Shown here one piece after another: positions 13,421 through 33,653 of a stretch of DNA of 64,000 bases. Position numbers and translations under genes: made by a program. Under the pieces are notes generated by a model. That model was not told the DNA's origin. It ran no database searches and was given only the letters and a program-made list of their open reading frames with translations. Positions within the stretch are counted from its first letter, which is position 1; every line of letters starts with the position of its first letter. This DNA is from Candidatus Limnocylindrales bacterium (lineage in GTDB: Bacteria; Patescibacteriota; Microgenomatia; Levybacterales; UBA12049): NCBI GenBank assembly GCA_035526025.1, contig DATLDE010000018.1, positions 11,292 to 75,291 of the forward strand, given 5' to 3'.

Positions 13421-13968
13421 ATAGCTTGCTAGTAATGTTATTAACTATAGGAATAATACTTATTAAAATATTCTGGATTAATACAGAAATCAGATATTTC
13501 AAGAATAGATTGAACTTTGAGATGTTCAAAACAAATTTTATCGAACTTGTTATTCTGGTCTCACAAATTTTTGTAGTTTATTATTTTCCGCTTCCTAGAA
13601 CACCTTATGATTTTGTTATCTCGTCGCTTGGAATCATAATGTACGTATTAGGTATGGGATTTGCTGTATGGGCAAGAATTACTATGAATAAGGTGTGGGG
13701 CGTGCCTGGTGAATTCTCTCAAAATCAAACTCATTTCGTTACAACCGGCCCATTTCAGATCTCAAGAAATCCAATTTATCTAGGTTTTATATTTATTTAT
13801 TTTGGATTTGCTATAGCTATTAATAGCTGGCTGATTTTTCTAAGAATTCCACTGTTAATTTACTTTTATAAAGCAGCAAAAATTGAGGAAAAGATACTGG
13901 AGAAGAAATTTGGGAAAAAATACCTTACGTATAAATCTAAAACTCCCCGATTTTTACTTGGTGTCTAA
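13417..13968 (+). CDS. isoprenylcysteine carboxyl methyltransferase (ICMT)/PEMT-family membrane methyltransferase
   Basis: Polytopic membrane protein with GPFQISRNPIYLG motif. Start overlaps the upstream stop. Confidence 0.65.
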   Translation: MNSLLVMLLTIGIILIKIFWINTEIRYFKNRLNFEMFKTNFIELVILVSQIFVVYYFPLPRTPYDFVISSLGIIMYVLGMGFAVWARITMNKVWGVPGEFSQNQTHFVTTGPFQISRNPIYLGFIFIYFGFAIAINSWLIFLRIPLLIYFYKAAKIEEKILEKKFGKKYLTYKSKTPRFLLGV

Positions 13969-21991: not shown

Positions 21992-22822
21992 TTAGCCTTG
22001 CTTACATACAAAATTAACCTCAGCAATTACATTTTTGTAGTCATTTTCTGACAGATATAAGGTTTTTATCAGTGAATTATCCTTGTATATTTCCTTACAT
22101 AACACTATGTGGTTATTGAGAAGGATGCGCTTGTGACCTGATGATAGAGACGAAAGCATAGTAACAGGATACAAACGTAATCTCTCAATCATATCCCGCA
22201 GACTATTCCCTTCCGGGTAACTCCAGCTAATTGCCTTCATGTTCTTGCACTGCGCATAGGCATTTACTTCAGTTGTTGTTTTGGTGTTGGTTATAATCCA
22301 TGCTTCATCAATATGATTTTTATTTTTTATATCTACAAATCTAGCTTGAGTATAAAGTGCTACATGGACTTGTGAGCGAATACCCGGGCTGTTATGATAC
22401 TTTGCTTCTATCATTGCTGATTTACCACCTTTTTCAGCAATTACATCTATCTCATGCGTTATGCACTCTCCTCTTAATACTTGACGCACTTTTGTGTGGT
22501 AGCCTTCCTCTTGAAGTAATTTCGATATAAAATCTTCAAAAGGATAACCTGTCGGGCCGAGATTCATTATGGCTTCTTTCAAGCTGTAGCGTGCTTTGGC
22601 ATAGTGATCGCCTGTATCTCCTAAGAATTCAGTGATGTGGTGATAGATTTCTCTAGTTGTTATCCCATCATACATCTTATTATTTACATGTGCCAATACC
22701 TTTCCTTGAATGGAGTGATGGATATGCGCACGTCGTATAGAATCAATTACTTTTTCTTCACTGTATGGTTCAAAAGTTTTATTTGCTTTTTGGACAGAAT
22801 ACATATTACTAGTATATCTCAA
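21992..22822 (-). CDS. ATP-cone domain fused to PD-(D/E)xK (Mrr-like) restriction endonuclease domain
   Basis: N-terminal NrdR-type ATP-cone-like region. The PD-(D/E)xK core reads HEIDVIAEKGGKSAMIEAKYH. Confidence 0.5.
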   Translation of the reverse strand: MRYTSNMYSVQKANKTFEPYSEEKVIDSIRRAHIHHSIQGKVLAHVNNKMYDGITTREIYHHITEFLGDTGDHYAKARYSLKEAIMNLGPTGYPFEDFISKLLQEEGYHTKVRQVLRGECITHEIDVIAEKGGKSAMIEAKYHNSPGIRSQVHVALYTQARFVDIKNKNHIDEAWIITNTKTTTEVNAYAQCKNMKAISWSYPEGNSLRDMIERLRLYPVTMLSSLSSGHKRILLNNHIVLCKEIYKDNSLIKTLYLSENDYKNVIAEVNFVCKQG

Positions 22823-24584
22823 ATGATTCCAGAAGTTTTTTATTTCCTGTAATTTGATAATTAAGAAGATCCTGATATAACCCTTTTCTCAGGGAAAGCT
22901 CCTTTGGTGTTCCAGCATCTGATATCCGACCATTTTCAATCACGATGACCTTGTCTACATTTTGAATAGTTGAGAACCTATGCGCAATAATGATAGTCAA
23001 CCTATCTTTCATCAGGTTCTCCAACGCGTCCTGGACTTCTTTCTCGGACTTGGCGTCAAGTGATGAAGTCGCTTCATCCAAAATAAGTATTGGAGCGTTC
23101 TTCATTATCGCACGTGCTATCTGAATTCTCTGCTTCTGTCCGCCTGACAACCTGACACCCCGCTCTCCAACTTCACTATTGATTTTCTTTGGAAGTTTAT
23201 TTACAAATTCCAGAGCATTTGCAAGCCTTAAAGCATTAATTACATCAGCATCTTTTGCACTATTTTGCCCATAAGCAACATTTTCTCTGATGGTTGATGA
23301 GAATAATTCATTTTCCTGAAAAACAAGTGAAATATTTTGTCTCACAAAATTATAATCTAATTCTGAATAGTTTTTTCCGTTCAGATATATCCCACCGCTT
23401 GTCGGTAGATAAAACTTTAGTATCAAATTGGCCATTGTCGACTTACCTGCGCCACTATGTCCAACCAAAGCCACTGTTTCACCTTTTCCTATCTTAAATG
23501 ATACGTTATTTAATACATTTGCAGATTTTTCGTAATTGAATGATACTTTTTTGAACTCTATTTCTGGATCCTTGATTCTTTCCATATCAGACTTCCTTTT
23601 ATAATCTTCAGTTGATTTGAGTGACAGAACTTCAAAGTACTCTTTAGATCCACTTTCTGCAGTCTGAATCTGTGTCAATATAAATGACATCGCAAATAGA
23701 GGAATCCTCGCCTGATTAAACAACTGCAGGATCAGAACCATCTCACCGATACTCAAATTTCCCAAGAAAGTATTATAAAACACCAAAACATTTACGGTAA
23801 AAAGGATTAGATTTAGAGAAAGCCCCCGAAAAAAATCAAATATATGATACGTTTTGCTTTGGCGCGCATAAATAATATTGCTTTCTCCTAGTTTTTTTGA
23901 AACCAATTCATACTCGCGTTTTTCATTTGTAAAACTTTTAACAAGGATCATGTTGGAAATCACTTCTTGTATGCGGCCACGAGTTATATCCTCAATTTTA
24001 TTTTTCTTTACTTCCTCTTTCCCCCATTTAACAGTTGAGTAATAGCTTAGCGATAGATAGACCGGAAATAAAAGAAATGTAAAAAACGCAACCGGCAGGC
24101 TGTAATATGCAAGAACTGCAATTGTAAATATGCTTTGGATAAATGTCGGCAATATGAAATTTGAGGAGGTATTTAAAAACGAATGAATCGATACAATACC
24201 TCTGGATAACTGATTTACAATTTTTCCGGATATCTCTGAGTCAAAATAAGATTGTGGGAGAGTGAGGACTTTATCGTAAAACTTTTCTGTAAGAAATTTT
24301 CTCAATTGTCCCGCAAAATGATCCCCCAATCTATCCGATATGCTTGTGACTGCAAGGCCTAGTAAATTTGCTCCAAATGCAAAAAGTATGAGAGTGATCA
24401 GGCGCCTTATATCTCCCCCTTTGTTCTGTACATTCTGGACTATTTCATCAACAATAAATTTTGACAGAATTGGCGCAATCAAAGAAAGAACAGATGAGAC
24501 GAGGATAAACACAGCAATAATAATTGCCAGGGGATGTAATGGTTTGGAGATCTTTAATATTTTAAATATATTTTTCATATGCAA
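22809..24584 (-). CDS. ABC transporter, fused permease/ATPase (type I exporter, MsbA-like)
   Basis: Six-TM N-terminal half. Walker A GHSGAGKST, signature LSGGQKQR, Walker B ILILDEATS. Confidence 0.85.
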   Translation of the reverse strand: MHMKNIFKILKISKPLHPLAIIIAVFILVSSVLSLIAPILSKFIVDEIVQNVQNKGGDIRRLITLILFAFGANLLGLAVTSISDRLGDHFAGQLRKFLTEKFYDKVLTLPQSYFDSEISGKIVNQLSRGIVSIHSFLNTSSNFILPTFIQSIFTIAVLAYYSLPVAFFTFLLFPVYLSLSYYSTVKWGKEEVKKNKIEDITRGRIQEVISNMILVKSFTNEKREYELVSKKLGESNIIYARQSKTYHIFDFFRGLSLNLILFTVNVLVFYNTFLGNLSIGEMVLILQLFNQARIPLFAMSFILTQIQTAESGSKEYFEVLSLKSTEDYKRKSDMERIKDPEIEFKKVSFNYEKSANVLNNVSFKIGKGETVALVGHSGAGKSTMANLILKFYLPTSGGIYLNGKNYSELDYNFVRQNISLVFQENELFSSTIRENVAYGQNSAKDADVINALRLANALEFVNKLPKKINSEVGERGVRLSGGQKQRIQIARAIMKNAPILILDEATSSLDAKSEKEVQDALENLMKDRLTIIIAHRFSTIQNVDKVIVIENGRISDAGTPKELSLRKGLYQDLLNYQITGNKKLLESFEIY

Positions 24585-24593
24585 TACTAATAA

Positions 24594-26930
24594 CTATTTT
24601 ACATTTTTTTTTCTGAATATAACAAAAGAACCTTTTTCGGTAATGATTTCATATCGATTATCGTGGCGTATTTTCTCTAGTTGTAATTTTTGAGCAATTA
24701 GAGATTGTGGCTGTTCATTTTTATTTGGATAAAATACAAGCACATCTGCTTTCTCAAGTCCTAGAGGAAGTGTAAATAGCTCAAGCCTATGGGCTAAATG
24801 AGAACCTACGTTATTTGAAGCTGCTACGCTTAAATGGGGTGGAATGTCTGATAATTTCTGTTCTAAAAATTTGTAGTCTGGTAATTGTTTATTGATCATT
24901 TCCAGATTTGCATCTTTTGAGCCAGGTAACACTCCTAGCTTATAAGCACTCATCAGGCTTGTTATTAAAATAAAGATTGGCAAAACAAATAGATACTTTT
25001 CCTCTATATATTTTTTGATAATATTCATCCCAAAAATGGCGCTAATAAAAATAAACGGGGTAATTGCAGCGGTATATTGATAATAGATTTGGTGAAGCTG
25101 AGCGTTGTTACTCAAGAGATTAATAGTCAAATCAGCTCCTGCCAATATCAAAAAGAAAGGATATATAAATGATAGATATCCAAGTGGTGAAAAAAGTTGA
25201 GCCAGATAATCAATCTTTTCTTTTTGATAAATTATCTCAAAAACTTTCTGAGGTGAAAATAATATGTTTTTCGCAATTGAAAGCGGACCATCCCCAAAAT
25301 CTGAGTAATAATCAATTGCAAAATGAGACGCACCTAAAGCCTGTGGAATTGCAACAGAAATGAGATAGTAGAATATTCCAAAAGACACAAAAAATATAAG
25401 ACTTCCGAATAATCTTTTTTTGTGATTGAAAAACAACATAACACCAAATAAAGCTATGATCAGCCATATTTGTTCTTTACTGATAGCAGCAAGTAACGCA
25501 AAAATCATAAACAAAACATATTTTTTTCTACTATAGAAATAGTATGTTCCGAGGAGAAAAGTAGTTGCTAGAGTGACTGCGTGAAAGTCATATAGATTTG
25601 CCCTTTGAACACTTGGATTTATAAGATATGCAAAAGCAAATGCAAGTGACAAATTTTTACTGGTAAGCTTGTCTTTGGCAATTAAATAAACAAATATGCT
25701 GCCAAGCGCTACGACAAATGTCTGGATGAATAAAAGCGTTTTAGGATTGGGAAACAATGCGTAAAAAGGAGCGAGAAGAATCAAAAGAAAATCTGCATGA
25801 AATGCAAGGCGTGAGACCATGTCTGCGCCATCAGGATTGGTAAATTGAAATATACGTCCTTGTGTGGTATTCCAGACTGTTTGGGCCATATTTCCTAGAT
25901 CAAACCTGCCTGTATAAAAATGGTCATACCGCAGGAAGCTGATCCAGGAAAAATACGCTATATATATAATTATCAATCCCAAAAGCACAGCTTCATGTTT
26001 GTGATTTGCAACAAGATTGCTAAGTTGACTAACTTTTTTACTTTTTGATTTAAAATATAAATAAGTTATACCCAAAAATATTATCTCAGAAATTATAAGT
26101 ATTATTCTTGAAAAAAGTGCTATGAATGCACCAATTGATGAATTTACAATTTTCGACAATCCGGCAATAATAATTCCTTCTCGTACACCAAATCCAGCGG
26201 GTGTTAAAAGAGAAAGATAACCAATAAGTACTGACAAGACAAAAAACCCACTGAGTTGAAAAAACAATTCAATTGGCAGAATAATTACTGAGCTAATTAC
26301 GAAATAGTTTGCAACCCCAAACCAAAGCAAGGCACATGTACTTAATGCCACCAAGTTCGCATTTTCTGATCTTTCAAATTTAGGTATAAATTTTAAATTC
26401 TGTTGAAAAAATATATATAACAAAACACCAATCAAAACTATGAAAATTATTAATTTTTGAGAAAAATCAGGGACGAAATTGCTAAAACTTGAAAGAACAA
26501 AGGGAAGTGATAAAAGAGAAATAACTGCACACCCAATAACAAAGATTCCAGCTTCAGTTACGATAAGCTTACCCACATTCTTTTTAGGAATACCTTGTTC
26601 TGAAAATGCAAAAGCTCTTCCGAGAAAAGATACTATGCTTCCTGGAATATATCTTTTAAATTCAGATACAGAATAATGATAAGCAGATTGTTTGTAAGTT
26701 ATTTTATTTGAATAAACCTTAAGAAGTCTATGCCAAATATAGCTTCTGAGGAAATAATACACTAGAAAACTAAATATCCCTATCATTAATAAAACTGGAT
26801 TTGCAGCATAAAGCTTACTGGTAAATTCCGGAATTCTTGGAGCTACGAGCTTGATAATAAAGAATAATGCGAGAATAGAAAACGGCCATCCTAAAGCGTA
26901 TTTGAGAATTGAGAATAGTCGGTTCTGCAT
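24594..26930 (-). CDS. large polytopic membrane protein, C-terminal half DUF2079-like
   Basis: 778 aa with more than 20 predicted TM segments. RYDHFYTGRFDLGNMAQTVWN resembles the DUF2079 core. Confidence 0.5.
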   Translation of the reverse strand: MQNRLFSILKYALGWPFSILALFFIIKLVAPRIPEFTSKLYAANPVLLMIGIFSFLVYYFLRSYIWHRLLKVYSNKITYKQSAYHYSVSEFKRYIPGSIVSFLGRAFAFSEQGIPKKNVGKLIVTEAGIFVIGCAVISLLSLPFVLSSFSNFVPDFSQKLIIFIVLIGVLLYIFFQQNLKFIPKFERSENANLVALSTCALLWFGVANYFVISSVIILPIELFFQLSGFFVLSVLIGYLSLLTPAGFGVREGIIIAGLSKIVNSSIGAFIALFSRIILIISEIIFLGITYLYFKSKSKKVSQLSNLVANHKHEAVLLGLIIIYIAYFSWISFLRYDHFYTGRFDLGNMAQTVWNTTQGRIFQFTNPDGADMVSRLAFHADFLLILLAPFYALFPNPKTLLFIQTFVVALGSIFVYLIAKDKLTSKNLSLAFAFAYLINPSVQRANLYDFHAVTLATTFLLGTYYFYSRKKYVLFMIFALLAAISKEQIWLIIALFGVMLFFNHKKRLFGSLIFFVSFGIFYYLISVAIPQALGASHFAIDYYSDFGDGPLSIAKNILFSPQKVFEIIYQKEKIDYLAQLFSPLGYLSFIYPFFLILAGADLTINLLSNNAQLHQIYYQYTAAITPFIFISAIFGMNIIKKYIEEKYLFVLPIFILITSLMSAYKLGVLPGSKDANLEMINKQLPDYKFLEQKLSDIPPHLSVAASNNVGSHLAHRLELFTLPLGLEKADVLVFYPNKNEQPQSLIAQKLQLEKIRHDNRYEIITEKGSFVIFRKKNVK

Positions 26931-27033
26931 TTAGCTATTTTACTAGAAATATCATTTTATTCATAGCTTATGATATATATAATATGTATATTTGTACATT
27001 GTATGGGGGTCTGATAAAATCAATTTAAATAAC

Positions 27034-27106
27034 GCACCCGTAGCTCAGTGGATAGAGCACTTCGCTTCGGACGAAGGGGTCGGGGGTTCGAATCCCTCCG
27101 GGTGCA
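27034..27106 (+). tRNA. tRNA-Arg (anticodon TCG)
   Basis: Anticodon stem CTTCG/CGAAG with loop CTTCGGA, T-arm GGGGG-TTCGAAT-CCCTC. Confidence 0.8.
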
Positions 27107-27110
27107 CTAA

Positions 27111-27497
27111 TTAATCAAAAGCTTTAACTAATAAAAATGATAAATCAGCTGCAAATTTAAATCCTTTTTCCCGGGCTATGTCTGAGCAATCTTCTGGATC
27201 CCGAGCCGCAGCAATCCTCTTCTGCGTAATTCGAGCGGCCAACACAGCTTTTGCATCTGTTGCTTCCCATCTACTTCTTGCTCTTCCTAAAATATCACTT
27301 ACTTTACCAAACTTTATATCCAAACCTCTCAATTTGTTAGGTCCTGTACTAAATGCTAATTGTCCTGGGATATATACATCCACTGCTTGAGCATATTTTG
27401 TGATTTCATCATCATTTGCCGTCAGAATTTTCGACGCAGTAAATGCAGCCTGATCAGCAAGACCAATATCTCCCTTAGGGCGAAATGTTCTTGCGTA
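27111..27497 (-). pseudogene. hypothetical ORF, probable 3' fragment of a disrupted gene (same frame as 27555-28094)
   Basis: The frame is open from 27497 but has no ATG. It continues the frame of the upstream ORF across in-frame TAA (27555-57) and TAG (27498-500). Confidence 0.3.
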
Positions 27498-27554
27498 CTA
27501 CATTCCGCTCGTGTAAAACATCAATTGTTGTCCCTCTAATTGCTCTTTCATAAT

Positions 27555-28094
27555 TTATGGTGCAGGTATTTTTCTAAGAGTACCATCAGTTAGCTTGTTC
27601 ACAACATCTTTTGCAAAAAAGTTAACAATTTCAAGTCTTGGCTTTGCCAATCTCTCGCTACTTACAAGTAAATTGCTTCCTGAGAGTTCATTTCTCACAA
27701 CTCGCGGCGCCAATGCCAACTTTAATTGTTTTACTGCCTCTAATTCAGCTCTTTCAACAGGCGTGTCTATATCAAGATATGCCTGCCTTACAGAATTGTG
27801 AAATCCAATGTATGTAGGATAAACCGTTTTTTCATTTTCGGATATTTCTGTTGGATTTTTATCCAGTTCAAATGCCAAGCTTAGTGTTTCTGCTGGTGAG
27901 GCCACGACAAGTCTTGAAACTCCGGGAATTACCATATGAACTAAATGGCTTCTTAGTCTACCTTCCTCACTTGAAATTTTAGATTCCTTACTAGTTATCA
28001 AGTCTGTAGTAAATTCACCTGCATAACTCCTTATTGAAGCTTCAACATAATCTAGTTCTAAAAGCGGATCAAGTAATTTTTTTGTTTCTGTCAT
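27555..28094 (-). CDS. hypothetical protein (possibly 5' part of a disrupted gene)
   Basis: 179 aa, GC-richer than the genome, no motif. Confidence 0.4.
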   Translation of the reverse strand: MTETKKLLDPLLELDYVEASIRSYAGEFTTDLITSKESKISSEEGRLRSHLVHMVIPGVSRLVVASPAETLSLAFELDKNPTEISENEKTVYPTYIGFHNSVRQAYLDIDTPVERAELEAVKQLKLALAPRVVRNELSGSNLLVSSERLAKPRLEIVNFFAKDVVNKLTDGTLRKIPAP

Positions 28095-28189
28095 GATTTA
28101 AAATATTCATTAGCTATAAAATAAGTTTTTCTATGCTTAAGTGAATCTTAATATTAAATAGTCATTTTGTTGCATAAATTATATATTGT

Positions 28190-28717
28190 CTATGCTTCAC
28201 GTGGTAAAAATCTACTGTTCACGGCTTCTTGGAGCATTGTGAAGTGTGGATTTTGGATAATAGAATCAAAACTTGACGGATCATCAGGTTGTGCTTCAGG
28301 ATTAAATCCCAGAGCCATTGAACCGTATTTTCTGGCGATTTTGCCACTCAACCTTCTTCGCAATTCCTTATTCACTGAATCATCTAATGCTTGCCCGCTA
28401 GTGCCTATAAGCTCCTGACTCATTCTAAAAGAACTTACTTCATGGAAAATACCACCATATACCGATCTATCTCTATCTAAGTATTCATCATTATTTTGAT
28501 TCCGTTCAATGGTCATTGCGCGCTCAAATATATCTATATTATTACCGCTTTCAACAATAGACAGAATTTTTACTGCGGCATTCTTAAAACTCATAGGCAA
28601 ATCCGGCGTAGTTGACTCTACATGTTCTCTCAGCTCGATCGTCTCCTCGCTACCTGGGAATAACAAATCGATATATTGGAGTGCGTCTTGTAATCTTTCT
28701 GATGCATTTGCCGCCAT
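28190..28717 (-). CDS. hypothetical protein
   Basis: 175 aa, GC-richer, no motif. Confidence 0.4.
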   Translation of the reverse strand: MAANASERLQDALQYIDLLFPGSEETIELREHVESTTPDLPMSFKNAAVKILSIVESGNNIDIFERAMTIERNQNNDEYLDRDRSVYGGIFHEVSSFRMSQELIGTSGQALDDSVNKELRRRLSGKIARKYGSMALGFNPEAQPDDPSSFDSIIQNPHFTMLQEAVNSRFLPREA

Positions 28718-28808
28718 ATGAGGTATTATAGTATATTTATCCAGCCTTGTCTATGGTAAGTGGTGGCTGACTTACATATCAAATTTTGGTAGAATAGATA
28801 AGTTAATC

Positions 28809-28880
28809 GGGCCGCTAGCTCAATGGTAGAGCAGTACCCTCTTAAGGTATTTGTTCCGGGTTCGAGTCCCGGGCGGCTCA
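28809..28880 (+). tRNA. tRNA-Lys (anticodon CTT)
   Basis: Anticodon loop CTCTTAA, T-arm CCGGG-TTCGAGT-CCCGG. Confidence 0.8.
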
Positions 28881-28953
28881 CAAATAATTAAAATATTATA
28901 CTTAAATTCTTTTTATATTTTATGAGAGGAAAGTGTAGCAATTGCCAAGGAGA

Positions 28954-30675
28954 TTAGCTTCTTACGAGTAATTTTTGTGCTTTATTGAATTTCCTTTGCT
29001 CATTCTCAAACCATTTTTGATCCTCTGCCATTGCTTTTGCTATTTTTTTATCAAATTTATCATTTGTTTTTCTTTCTACTTTAGCTTTTGCACGTCTCTC
29101 GGTTTCCATATCTTGTCGTGCTTCGTCGATTATGCGAGCATCTTTTCTTGCTTGTCTTGCTTCTTTACTAAACGTCCTACTTGCTCCGACTGCAACTAAT
29201 GCAGCACCTACAGCAACCACGCCTCCTCCTGCTCCAGCAAGTGGGAGGAGATAATCACCTGCGCCTGTTCTCGCAAGATACATATCTGGCACACCTACCG
29301 TAGCAACTACTGGTGCTTGATAAACAACAACTACTGCGGGCGCTGTGGTGGGGGTTACAATTATCTCAGGCGCAGGGGGAGGAGTCACCACTTCTGGTAC
29401 TGTTACTGGTGGTACTGTTACTGGTGGAATAGTTGTGTCAGGAGTTGTTGTAGGTACTGTTGTCACTGGTGGTTTAGTTGTTGGAGTGGTAGTCGTGGTT
29501 GGTTTTTCATCATCTGGAGGACAAGTAGTAGTGGTAGTAGCCATTTTTTCTTCATCTTTCTTATCATCTTTCTTGTCTTTACCTTTATCTCCTTTTTCTA
29601 TAACCTTTCCATTTGCATCCTCCACTGTGGTCTCATCTCCATCACCACCGAGTGCTTTATCAATAGGTACATATACTTTATCATGCAAAATAGGACCGAC
29701 TACTGGCTTTAGCGATTCTGGCGTATTGTCATAAGCAATCTGTCCTGCATCAGTTACTACTTTAATCGCCGCAGGCCTAACGCTATCTAACGCATTGTCG
29801 ATAATTTGTGCATTTGGACTAGTGCTAGGCACTACAGCTGGAGATACTGCTACTTCAGGTGTAGCTTTTGCTACAGGTGCTAATTGTCTAGCTTCAGGAT
29901 GCAGAACTGCAACTGTTTGCGCTGCACGGCCTCCATCTGATGAGACTGCAGGCTGTTGCGCAATTACGGGCTCAGGTGTTGCAGCTGATCCTCTTGAACT
30001 ACTGATATCCTTACCGGATACTGCTGTCGCTTGTGCTAGAGCAGCATCAATTGCAGAACTAGCTGATGTTGCTGGTGCTTCAGCTGCAGCAGCTGATGTT
30101 GCGCCTGCTACTAATCCTACGAATAGAAGTGCTCCGCCTTCAGAAACTTTTACAACGGTCTTAAAATTTCTTCTTTTTGCTACTTCATCTGCCTGATCTG
30201 CTTCATTTTGTGCGTTTAATTTTTCAGCTCTTTTTCGAAGCTTGCTCTTTTCTGATAGTACTTTTCCTTCTAGTAACTTTTTGGCTTCTGGATGCGCATC
30301 AAAATATTTACCAGTTAATTTTGAAGAATCGATCTGGCCATTTTCCCCAACATGTTCAGGACGAAGTACTCTATTTCTCACCATTGCACCGATTTTTCCA
30401 TTCTCTGATCTCTTTTGTGCTTTTAACTGCTCAGGAGTTTGAGTTGGCTTTTCTTTTCTGAGTAACTGAAATCTTCTTGCGGGACTTGCTTCTGTAACTG
30501 GAGTTACAAATAATTCTCTTCGGTGAGTGCCTCCTAAACGGTGGAACAAACTTGGGGTATGTGCTTCAGGTGCTCCATGAACTGCATCAGTGCTTCTGGA
30601 TTTTCGTCCATGCATTTCAGGCGCTTGGAGTGGACCTCGATCTTTATTTGAAATTTTTCTTAATGCTTCTCTCAT
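28954..30675 (-). CDS. cell-surface protein: charged N-terminal region, TM, extracellular domain, Pro/Thr-rich linker, LARTG sorting motif, TM, long charged cytoplasmic tail
   Basis: Sequence TTTTTCPPDDEKPTTTTTPTTKPPVTTVP...DMYLARTGAGDYLLPLAGAGGGVVAVGAALVAVGASRTFSK. GC-richer than the genome. Confidence 0.55.
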   Translation of the reverse strand: MREALRKISNKDRGPLQAPEMHGRKSRSTDAVHGAPEAHTPSLFHRLGGTHRRELFVTPVTEASPARRFQLLRKEKPTQTPEQLKAQKRSENGKIGAMVRNRVLRPEHVGENGQIDSSKLTGKYFDAHPEAKKLLEGKVLSEKSKLRKRAEKLNAQNEADQADEVAKRRNFKTVVKVSEGGALLFVGLVAGATSAAAAEAPATSASSAIDAALAQATAVSGKDISSSRGSAATPEPVIAQQPAVSSDGGRAAQTVAVLHPEARQLAPVAKATPEVAVSPAVVPSTSPNAQIIDNALDSVRPAAIKVVTDAGQIAYDNTPESLKPVVGPILHDKVYVPIDKALGGDGDETTVEDANGKVIEKGDKGKDKKDDKKDEEKMATTTTTCPPDDEKPTTTTTPTTKPPVTTVPTTTPDTTIPPVTVPPVTVPEVVTPPPAPEIIVTPTTAPAVVVVYQAPVVATVGVPDMYLARTGAGDYLLPLAGAGGGVVAVGAALVAVGASRTFSKEARQARKDARIIDEARQDMETERRAKAKVERKTNDKFDKKIAKAMAEDQKWFENEQRKFNKAQKLLVRS

Positions 30676-30821
30676 GTTTATAATTTTTGTTTCGAAATTA
30701 AATTTTTTGTTTTGTCAGTAACGTAAAACATTTCGAGGTAATGTTGGCATTATACACTACATCTTATATAAGTCAAGTAGGAAAAGTGTAAGAGAGTGGA
30801 TTTAGCAATCCAAATAGGATT

Positions 30822-31271
30822 TTAGGCAGGTTTTTCGTATTTCAAATCGCGGTCTATAGTAGTCGCAGGATTCTTTTCAGAGAGCAACACAAGACTCCCA
30901 GCAATCAAAACAAGATTTTTCAATACACTTTCCCCAACTATAGAAAGTACTGGAAATCTCGGATCAAATCCATGAATGATAAGTAATAAAACTGTAGAAA
31001 TTGAAAGGTAAATAACTGTAACCAAAGATGCCAGCCTATCCATTTTATTGATCAAAAATGATATACCAATCCATATTTCAGTAAGCGCTACCAAAAATCC
31101 AAACATCACTGATTGTCCCAGAACTGGCGGTACCGAGCTTTGTAGAATTCCAAGCGAGGAACTAACTGCAAATAGCTTTAAGACTCCAAACCAAAGCATG
31201 CAGATCCCGAGTGATACACGAAGAATTGACAATGATTTTCTACTAATTATATCCACGTTCATATTATACAC
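30822..31271 (-). CDS. DoxX-like membrane protein
   Basis: 4-TM protein of 149 aa with LRVSLGICMLWFGVLKL typical of the DoxX/DUF417 families. Confidence 0.5.
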   Translation of the reverse strand: MYNMNVDIISRKSLSILRVSLGICMLWFGVLKLFAVSSSLGILQSSVPPVLGQSVMFGFLVALTEIWIGISFLINKMDRLASLVTVIYLSISTVLLLIIHGFDPRFPVLSIVGESVLKNLVLIAGSLVLLSEKNPATTIDRDLKYEKPA

Positions 31272-31960: not shown

Positions 31961-32467
31961 ATGGTGTATTATATAAAAATGATAAAAGATATTCTTATAA
32001 TGATAGTAATAGGTATTATTTTCCTAGGCACTGTTTTATTTTTCTCACTAAGAGTCAGTAGCAAACCAAACATCGGCACGTCAAACACATCAACACCTGA
32101 AACAGCCAATACCGCGGATGCTCCTCAAGTAGAAGTAAAAATCCCTGACAATTTAAAAATCGACGATTCAGTTGAGGGTACAGGACCAGCCGTAAAATCA
32201 GGTGATACCATCACTATTCACTATGCAGGAAGGCTTGAGGATGGTACGCCATTTGACAGTTCATATGATAGAGGCGAGCCATTTACCACCCAGATAGGTG
32301 TCGGACAAGTTATAAAAGGATGGGATCTGGGAGTAGTTGGTATGAAAGTAGGCGGAAAACGAAAACTTACTATCCCACCAGATCTAGGCTATGGAGATCA
32401 GGATCAAGGCAAAATTCCCCCAAACTCCACACTCATTTTTGATGTTGAGCTGATGGAAATAAAATAG
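31961..32467 (+). CDS. FKBP-type peptidyl-prolyl cis-trans isomerase, membrane-anchored
   Basis: N-terminal TM. FKBP core GDTITIHYAGRLEDGTPFDSSYDRGEPF...VIKGWDLGVVGMKVGGKRKLTIPPDLGYG. Confidence 0.85.
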   Translation: MVYYIKMIKDILIMIVIGIIFLGTVLFFSLRVSSKPNIGTSNTSTPETANTADAPQVEVKIPDNLKIDDSVEGTGPAVKSGDTITIHYAGRLEDGTPFDSSYDRGEPFTTQIGVGQVIKGWDLGVVGMKVGGKRKLTIPPDLGYGDQDQGKIPPNSTLIFDVELMEIK

Positions 32468-32509: not shown

Positions 32510-32713
32510 ATGTCACAAGGTGAAACATTCATTACCATTCTCCTCGCTGTCATCGCGTACTTTCTATACCTAATAACCAAACAGTTGTCGTACCTGAGTG
32601 GAAAAAGAATTAGATTTGGCTTTAAGTTACCCGAATTCCAAGCAAAAAGGTATAAAAGTGATCATTCGACAGGAACATTGCAGCCTAAAAAAGAACCCAA
32701 ACTCCCCAACTAA
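32510..32713 (+). CDS. small membrane protein, hypothetical
   Basis: 67 aa with one TM. Confidence 0.3.
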   Translation: MSQGETFITILLAVIAYFLYLITKQLSYLSGKRIRFGFKLPEFQAKRYKSDHSTGTLQPKKEPKLPN

Positions 32714-32830
32714 TTTCATCCAAACTTCCTACTTCCCAAATCCCCAATTTTGGGAGTAAAATATTAAATAGGTACTTGATCAAAATTTAGCACTGGACAT
32801 TTATAAAATCTTATAGTATAATTACCCATC

Positions 32831-32989
32831 ATGATTGATTACGACGAACTAAACGACCGAGAAAAATCAGTGGATTACCCTGAAGAATTTATCGAAGAAC
32901 TTCGAGCAGAATTTCGCTCAGGTGATACACATGAAGCGCTTGCGCGTGCTGAAAAACAGAATATCGACATACAGCAAATCATTGAGTAA
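32831..32989 (+). CDS. small acidic hypothetical protein (52 aa, not in ORF track)
   Basis: ATG-initiated ORF MIDYDELNDREKSVDYPEEF... found by eye. Below the track's 60 aa cutoff. Confidence 0.25.
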   Translation: MIDYDELNDREKSVDYPEEFIEELRAEFRSGDTHEALARAEKQNIDIQQIIE

Positions 32990-32994
32990 CTTCT

Positions 32995-33210
32995 TTAGTT
33001 ATTTATTATTACATCCTCGTCATCATCTGTTTTATCTACTACTGTTGTTTCTGTAATTTTTTCGACGAATGGCTGTCCTTTCATAGTGCAGACATCTGCG
33101 CCGCAAGCTGTAAGCCCGCCATCATACTGTTCCTGAGATATCTCAGCATGACACGAACCAGAACATGCATATGATTTTTTTGTAGTCTGTGTTGTTTGGA
33201 TAATATCCAT
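32995..33210 (-). CDS. small Cys-rich protein (CSGSCH...CGADVC)
   Basis: 71 aa with five Cys. SD-like AAAGGAGGTGA upstream. Confidence 0.35.
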   Translation of the reverse strand: MDIIQTTQTTKKSYACSGSCHAEISQEQYDGGLTACGADVCTMKGQPFVEKITETTVVDKTDDDEDVIINN

Positions 33211-33299: not shown

Positions 33300-33653
33300 T
33301 TATTTTATTCCTAGAAGTTCTACTTCAAAGATAAGTGTCGCGTCCCCTGGTATATCAGGATCTACTCCATAACGACCATATGCAAGCTCAGGTGGTATAG
33401 TCAATTTTCTAACCCCCCCGACTTTCATGCCAGGAACTCCCATATCCCATCCTTTTATTACATATCCTGCTCCAATTCTTACTTCAAATGGGGCGTCACG
33501 ATCAACAGAACTATCAAATTTGGTACCATCCTCTAGCCATCCAGTGTAGTGAATTGAAACAAGATCATTTTCTTTTGCAACTTGTCCAGTTCCCATTTCA
33601 ATATCTTCGATTTTAAGTTTCTTGGCATCAGCCATAATTATATTATAAAGCAA
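33300..33653 (-). CDS. FKBP-type peptidyl-prolyl cis-trans isomerase (cytoplasmic)
   Basis: FKBP core IHYTGWLEDGTKFDSSVDRDAPFEVRIGAGYVIKGWDMGVPGMKVGGVRKLTIPPELAYG. Confidence 0.85.
   Translation of the reverse strand: MLYNIIMADAKKLKIEDIEMGTGQVAKENDLVSIHYTGWLEDGTKFDSSVDRDAPFEVRIGAGYVIKGWDMGVPGMKVGGVRKLTIPPELAYGRYGVDPDIPGDATLIFEVELLGIK

Follow-up and report, generated by a model that had tools for sequence, protein, structure and literature searches.

A lineage-specific segment with orphan genes, flanked by tRNA genes, in a putative Levybacteria chromosome

The subject of this analysis is a segment of about 1.7 kb that lies between the genes of tRNA-Arg (anticodon TCG) and tRNA-Lys (anticodon CTT) in a stretch of 64,000 nucleotides (nt) from the metagenome-assembled contig DATLDE010000018.1. 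This whole stretch is referred to as the window. The tRNA-Arg gene (27034-27107) and the tRNA-Lys gene (28809-28881) are both on the plus strand and intact, and form the left and right boundaries of the slot. In an initial annotation, made from the letters of the sequence, the interval between these two tRNA genes had been suggested to be a small, possibly decaying, horizontally acquired island. The flanking tRNA genes themselves were borne out by ARAGORN and by Rfam (RF00005; 71.1 bits for tRNA-Arg and 66.9 bits for tRNA-Lys), and no other RNA family was found by Rfam in the region 26800-31000.

Extent and genes of the segment

The extent of the segment was defined by blastn and by alignments with the closest relative (locus L001), which shows 68% amino-acid identity in the DUF2079 protein encoded to the left of tRNA-Arg. 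Homology to L001 covers the upstream region of the DUF2079 gene and tRNA-Arg, and ends at 27112, 5 nt past the tRNA-Arg gene. It picks up again at 28781, 28 nt before tRNA-Lys, and runs through that gene. Therefore, the lineage-specific variable segment, to which no strand is assigned, is 27113-28780 (1668 nt). The same site in L001 is occupied by 311 unrelated nt.

The segment contains three open reading frames (ORFs) on the minus strand. ORF175 (28190-28717) and ORF179 (27555-28094) are intact, as had been stated initially; their products of 175 and 179 residues are predicted to be soluble, with isoelectric points (pI) of 4.8 and 5.7, respectively. The third frame, ORF3 (27111-27551), comprises 146 codons with an in-frame TAG at 27498-27500, and its translations are basic (pI of 9.0). 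Frames as long as ORF175 and ORF179 are hardly expected by chance: 0.05 open frames of at least 175 codons and 0.9 frames of at least 128 codons were found in shuffled windows. Codon usage was scored as log-odds, with 30 long window genes as the training set (score of 0.26 ± 0.07); 23 smaller genes outside this set score 0.23 ± 0.10. The in-frame values are 0.204 for ORF175 and 0.333 for ORF179 (0.20 and 0.33 after rounding) and 0.25-0.30 for ORF3, and the remaining five frames score much lower than the coding frame in all three cases. The GC contents at third codon positions (GC3) of ORF175, ORF179, and ORF3 are 0.33, 0.23, and 0.22, respectively, against a host value of 0.28 ± 0.03. Because long frames are not expected by chance and the codon bias is frame-specific and host-like, the ORFs on the minus strand are genuine coding sequences that use codons in the manner of the host.

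ORF3 had been taken for an intact gene of about 130 residues. Instead, it is a frame broken by the TAG codon. The longest canonical ORF in this frame encodes 90 residues (27111-27383) from a GTG start, and it is this part only that the source record annotates. Upstream of the GTG at 27383, the frame is open for 38 more codons up to the TAG, and an ATG is located at 27549-27551, 17 codons upstream of the TAG and 3 nt after the stop codon of ORF179. The 38 codons upstream of the GTG give a codon-usage log-odds of 0.426, which only 0.2% of equally long off-frame chunks reach. Because these codons score as coding-like, the most plausible reading of ORF3 is a gene of 146 codons with a single nonsense codon interrupting it. 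It is possible that a shorter protein is made from the GTG or from a non-canonical start. The in-frame stop in one of the three genes fits the wording "possibly decaying" in the initial annotation.

The C-terminus of ORF3, AARDPEDCSDIAREKGFKFAADLSF (27111-27185, minus strand), aligns with the latter half of the Nif11 domain, one bit below the Pfam cut-off (PF07862; 22.8 bits, with a range of 22.5-23.6 bits, against 23.8 bits), with profile positions 20-45 only being covered. This stretch is followed by 7 residues and lacks a Gly-Gly, and the model TIGR03798 scores 14.8 on ORF3 against a cut-off of 32.3. Nif11-type precursors of ribosomally synthesized and post-translationally modified peptides have an N-terminal leader, which is followed by a Gly-Gly site and the core peptide. 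A sub-threshold match at the C-terminus with no Gly-Gly site does not correspond to this architecture, and the assignment was rejected. A PIN domain, considered by eye for the N-terminal region of ORF3, was also rejected: the motifs are about 30 residues apart, not about 90, and Pfam gives no support.

Expression signals were predicted by a consensus scan. The putative promoter for ORF175 (28725-28753, minus strand; TAGACA-17-TATAAT) agrees with the consensus at 11 of 12 positions and is inside the variable segment. The end of its −10 box is 7 nt ahead of the ATG of ORF175, and this placement implies, if the promoter call is right, a leaderless mRNA. Such mRNAs seem to be common in the host genome, since hexamers resembling a −10 box end 4-12 nt before the start in 19 of 52 window genes, against 7% at random positions, and a Shine-Dalgarno-like motif is present in only five of the 52. 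For ORF179, a promoter-like site (28178-28207, minus strand; TTACCA-18-TATAAT), a pattern match only, is located within the 3'-terminal part of ORF175, 83 nt ahead of the start codon of ORF179.

The proteins of the segment seem to have no relatives in the databases searched. No family was found for the three ORFs in Pfam, PHROGs, NCBIfam, or PADLOC, except for the sub-threshold Nif11 stretch of ORF3; for ORF175 and ORF179, this agrees with the initial view that they carry no recognizable motif. Among 5.8 billion clustered proteins, ORF175, ORF179, and ORF3 each match only themselves, as singletons from one contig of 78,271 bp. An exhaustive HMMER search of ORF175 against 1.84 billion representatives returned ORF175 itself and one spurious match. 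The latter (P0004) is a protein of 1356 residues made of near-identical tandem repeats, and it was rejected as a relative because its E-value results from one weak match that occurs seven times. The tblastn searches of ORF175 and ORF179 against 50,697 phage and 72,556 plasmid records gave nothing, as did scans of IMG/VR with all three ORFs and the neighboring ORF573, and an exact-sequence look-up of contigs encoding ORF179 or ORF573 gave no record. No paralogue of the segment ORFs was found elsewhere in the window. Paralogy between ORF175 and ORF179 was considered on the basis of a weak co-linear local alignment (p = 0.036 by shuffling; BLAST E-value of 0.05), which was not convincing.

Structure prediction gave little further information. 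The AlphaFold model of ORF179 from the single sequence was unusable, with a predicted local distance difference test (pLDDT) value of 34, and that of ORF175 (pLDDT of 56) was all-helical. Foldseek searches with this low-confidence ORF175 model against the PDB and BFVD gave nothing below an E-value of 1.4. A J domain in ORF175 was suggested by a weak PDB match to DNAJC5 (E-value of 0.019). The J domain is characterized by a His-Pro-Asp motif between helices II and III. ORF175 lacks this motif, and its C-terminal part gave no Pfam DnaJ match at an E-value of up to 10; the match was therefore rejected as chance. A sequence match to a dodecin in the PDB (E-value of 0.12) has no Pfam backing and was likewise regarded as chance. 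It had been proposed that the proteins be tested for an HK97 fold or an encapsulin-like nature. The HK97 fold is a mixed alpha/beta fold, usually of more than 250 residues. The products of 175-179 residues, predicted to be all-helical and without a match to a capsid family or fold, give this idea no support, but with models of such low confidence (pLDDT of 34 and 56) they do not amount to a refutation.

The slot in related loci and the composition of the segment

Related loci were collected with the DUF2079 gene: 47 from GTDB genomes and 40 from metagenomes, 87 in total. The closest one is L001, and the scan of metagenomes revealed no relative closer than 54% identity. The tRNA-Arg gene is 76-99% identical to the same tRNA in the related Levybacteria loci, and tRNA-Lys is also conserved in relatives. 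In 31 of the loci, both tRNA genes are found to one side of the DUF2079 gene. Their spacer varies greatly in length: it is 11-89 nt in 13 loci, 239-358 nt in eight, and 1.6-4.1 kb (4068 nt at most) in the other ten, where it holds unrelated cargo. The cargo of the long spacers includes VKOR, DUF4153, a MacB-like ABC transporter operon, an aminotransferase, and others. Of the eight spacers of intermediate length, seven contain a single GIY-YIG gene of 81-97 residues each, and the eighth (L001) contains an unrelated ORF of 99 residues.

No relative of ORF175, ORF179, or ORF3 was found by tblastn in the 87 related loci. The comparison of the tRNA-Arg to tRNA-Lys interval in related genomes, which had been proposed initially, thus showed that the cargo is absent from all relatives found and that the tRNA genes there are mostly side by side. 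This means that the segment is an insertion into a tRNA-flanked variable spot; the same three genes being syntenic in all relatives, which would have spoken for the opposite, is clearly not what is seen. Most parsimoniously, the tandem tRNA pair is ancestral and the cargo was inserted.

It should be mentioned that the GIY-YIG genes in the spacers of intermediate length (L035:4656-4910, L038:8997-9257, L039:66-311, L040:9054-9299, L041:8186-8479, L047:6774-7037, and L076:8894-9139) are free-standing nuclease-domain genes (Pfam PF01541; E-value of 3e-14 for L035).

The composition of the segment does not stand out from that of the window. The GC content of 27108-28808 is 37.1%, against a mean of 36.4% for the window (standard deviation of 2.4% for equal-sized windows), and 40% of equal-sized windows are as GC-rich as the segment or richer. 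The segment had been described as distinctly GC-richer than its flanks. The left neighbor, the gene of a membrane protein of 778 residues (LPG-synthase/DUF2079), has a GC content of 32.6%, below that of the segment, and encodes a protein rich in Phe, Ile, Leu, and Tyr. The right neighbor is at 43.2%, above the segment. In other words, the contrast is with one AT-rich membrane-protein gene, and contrast with one neighboring gene is a poor sign of foreign DNA. In tetranucleotide usage, 82% of equal-sized windows are farther from the window average than the segment is, and the dinucleotide signature is typical. The composition shift taken initially as a mark of foreign DNA is thus contradicted by GC content, tetranucleotides, dinucleotides, and codon usage, all of which are host-typical: nothing in the composition marks the DNA of the segment as recently foreign.

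Origin of the segment

The segment probably represents lineage-specific orphan cargo in a variable tRNA-tRNA slot of Levybacteria, with no recognizable mobile element. According to this explanation, tRNA-Arg(TCG) and tRNA-Lys(CTT) would have stood in tandem ancestrally, separated by a spacer that is a variable slot; here, it holds 1668 nt of cargo consisting of the intact orphan genes ORF175 and ORF179 and the nonsense-disrupted ORF3. The cargo would be either long-resident or compositionally matched to the chromosome, having host codon usage and host-style expression signals of its own. ORF175 might be expressed from a leaderless mRNA, divergently from tRNA-Lys, and ORF179 and ORF3 might be read as a coupled pair from the promoter-like site inside the end of ORF175. 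The cargo may have come from an unsampled donor of similar composition (another Levybacterium or its element), or may have been resident for long enough to lose any foreign signature. Its entry might have occurred by recombination into the spacer, either with crossovers in or next to the conserved tRNA genes or by an event whose traces have eroded; the tRNA genes have 76-99% identity between genomes in which the identity of the proteins is only 40-60%. The products would be dispensable, soluble, cytoplasmic accessory proteins, of which one seems to be decaying already.

Several points weigh against this explanation. The recombination route is entirely inferential, and the donor of the cargo is a postulated one. 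Since the closest sampled relative is only 68% identical, the timing and direction of the change (gain here or repeated loss elsewhere) are based on parsimony, not on observation. Expression and function of the genes are putative; the promoter calls are consensus matches only. In addition, the exhaustive HMMER search was made for ORF175 only. The search with ORF179 and ORF3 was word-indexed, and distant homologues can escape such a search.

The origin of the segment from an eroded integrase-mediated element (a prophage, an integrative island, or a tycheposon-like element) at the 3' end of tRNA-Arg or beside tRNA-Lys, with later loss of the integrase and the att repeat, seems rather unlikely. 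The position exactly between two tRNA genes, the absence from relatives, the left junction at most 5 nt from the 3' end of tRNA-Arg, the nonsense codon in one gene, and the orphan genes, which are typical of phage-derived DNA, would all be in keeping with it. However, no integrase or recombinase was found by Pfam within −7/+13 kb (ORFs of at least 100 residues; 20001-41879), and no transposase or phage gene is present in the neighborhood of the segment. A search for direct repeats of the two tRNA ends gave nothing but AT-rich chance matches. Fragments of the tRNA genes (12-22 nt; 0-3 mismatches) searched across the window match only other tRNA genes, except for an isolated 15-mer with one mismatch at 13913. 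These searches agree with the initial remark that neither an integrase nor a flanking direct repeat was to be seen. The lack of any PHROG match, the empty searches of phage and plasmid records and IMG/VR, and the fully host-like composition and codon usage argue in the same direction. From the small acquired island of the initial annotation, there remains an insertion that is absent from relatives, with an in-frame stop in one gene; the composition shift was not confirmed, and no integrase, att-like tRNA repeat, or homology to phages or plasmids was found.

If the segment were no insertion, its ORFs could be old native genes of the lineage, which were often lost elsewhere or have evolved past recognition. 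Host-like codon usage, GC3, and promoter architecture would be expected for such genes, and close relatives, the best of which shows 68% identity, are poorly sampled. The chance of this is nevertheless small: with the tRNA genes not more than 100 nt apart in 13 loci from diverse Levybacteria and less than 360 nt apart in eight more, the genes would need to have been lost repeatedly, and in full each time, no homologue was found among the 5.8 billion proteins or at the 87 syntenic loci, and other loci have unrelated cargo at the same site. It is hardly credible that the ORFs are not genes, or that the segment arose from an assembly chimera joined at conserved tRNA sequences. Such an artifact might be suspected in a metagenome-assembled contig with a doubtful taxonomic label, given tRNA genes conserved enough for strains to be mis-joined and proteins with no homologues or confident fold. 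It is opposed by the length of the frames (0.05 expected per shuffled window), by a frame-specific codon bias equal to that of host genes, by both flanks belonging to the same syntenic Levybacteria neighborhood, and by a segment composition that matches the rest of the contig.

There is also a slim chance that ORF175, ORF179, and ORF3 are an unseen functional module of an unsampled Levybacteria lineage, or recently arisen proteins with no ancestry in the sampled families. One form of such a module could be a toxin-antitoxin-like or host-interaction pair of the acidic ORF179 and the basic, inactivated ORF3, with ORF175 as a separate leaderless gene. If this were true, the tRNA-tRNA spacer would serve as a testing ground for new genes in the streamlined genome of an episymbiont.

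The slot may be compared with known systems. Additive flexible genomic islands and integration hotspots beside tRNA genes have been described in Alteromonas pangenomes (PMC4898812). As in those hotspots, a single tRNA-marked site holds different, unrelated cassettes in each genome, with many hypothetical proteins, and the core flanks remain syntenic. The Levybacteria slot differs from them in its very small size (0-4 kb) and in having a tRNA gene on either side instead of a single one upstream, and it lacks the direct repeat of a tRNA fragment often seen there. Moreover, the cassette is shared with no other genome, so that a recurring cassette as a sign of exchange is not observed, and the Levybacteria comparison spans genus- or family-level divergence, not strains. 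Islander defines integrase-mediated islands in tRNA or tmRNA genes by a tyrosine (or serine) integrase at one end, a displaced fragment of the target tRNA, and an atypical composition (PMC4383910). Like these islands, the segment borders on a tRNA gene at its 3' end and is absent from the same site in relatives, but it has neither a tyrosine integrase nor a displaced tRNA fragment at the far end, it is far smaller at 1.7 kb, and its composition is not atypical.

The proteins themselves resemble the taxonomically restricted ORFans of prokaryotic accessory genomes in being short, in lacking homologues even in very large databases, and in being encoded in a variable region, and one of the genes is decaying. 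Many recently acquired orphan genes are AT-richer than their host, and the ORFs of the segment differ from these in being fully host-like in codon usage and GC3. ORF179 and ORF3 also recall a type II toxin-antitoxin system, in which the genes are small, adjacent, co-directional, and coupled. This arrangement is present here, in that the acidic ORF179 (pI of 5.7) is followed after 3 nt on the same strand by the basic ORF3 (pI of 9.0), the second gene being inactivated by the stop. However, no toxin, antitoxin, or defense family was matched in Pfam, NCBIfam, or PADLOC, and the upstream ORF179 is large for an antitoxin and has no recognizable DNA-binding domain.

The segment is an ordinary kind of genome variation. 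Alone it matters little, as one more tRNA-flanked variable slot and three more orphan proteins in a very large pool. It suggests that even a streamlined candidate-phyla-radiation genome of about 1 Mb keeps a defined hotspot, where cargo turns over without visible integration machinery and where orphan cargo can be fully host-like in codon usage and promoter architecture.

Flanking genes and the host

Both tRNA genes are preceded by promoter-like sites in the consensus scan. The site 5' of tRNA-Arg (26993-27020, plus strand; TGTACA-16-TAAAAT with a TG ahead of the second hexamer), again a pattern match only, is in a region conserved in L001. The site of tRNA-Lys (28767-28795, plus strand) reads CTGACT-17-TAGAAT, also with a TG, and the alignment places its −10 part inside the 28 nt conserved with L001.

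To the left of the segment, synteny is conserved for the DUF2079 gene, an ATP-cone/Mrr-like gene, and DinB. The DUF2079 and ATP-cone/Mrr-like genes are directly adjacent in essentially all relatives, and only in this window is an ABC exporter gene of 591 residues (22809-24584, minus strand) found between them. This exporter gene appears to be a second lineage-specific insertion near the segment.

The right side is ordinary chromosomal DNA that encodes the 573-residue membrane or surface protein (ORF573), DoxX, a Gmad2-domain protein, two FKBP isomerases, and an AI-2E transporter, and further on a cytidylyltransferase/DUF359 protein, UvrA, a transglutaminase-like protein, and UvrC. The UvrA protein shares 80% identity with that of a Levyibacteriota metagenome-assembled genome. 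Those loci among the 87 that carry a phylum-level name are mostly from Levybacteria or Levyibacteriota. The host genome is thus most readily assigned, from gene content, to Levybacteria (Microgenomates, candidate phyla radiation). The source record (proteins VM077_06095-06105) is labeled "Candidatus Limnocylindrales bacterium" (Chloroflexota), whereas gene content, the GC content of 36%, and the syntenic relatives point to Levybacteria. Many related third-party assemblies are labeled Gammaproteobacteria, Lysobacterales, Methylomirabilota, and so on. These labels suggest mis-binning or mislabeling.

ORF573 (28954-30675, minus strand), the right-hand neighbor of tRNA-Lys, deviates more in tetranucleotide usage than any other part of the window (L1 distance of 0.43 against 0.239 ± 0.034) and has a GC content of 43%. 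Its product has a high content of Thr, Pro, Val, and Ala, and 15-nt periodic repeats are present in the gene at 29386-29497. The protein has two hydrophobic stretches, with an LARTG motif (LAxTG-like) ahead of the second. No Pfam family was found for it, and no relative in the 87 related loci or in viral contigs. These features make it look like a lineage-specific surface protein, and ORF573 is a better candidate for compositionally odd DNA than the tRNA-flanked segment.

The two FKBP-type peptidyl-prolyl isomerase genes (31961-32467, plus strand; 33300-33653, minus strand) are 0.8 kb apart, and one of their products has an N-terminal hydrophobic stretch. Between them, three small unannotated ORFs of 52-71 residues are located at 32510-33210.

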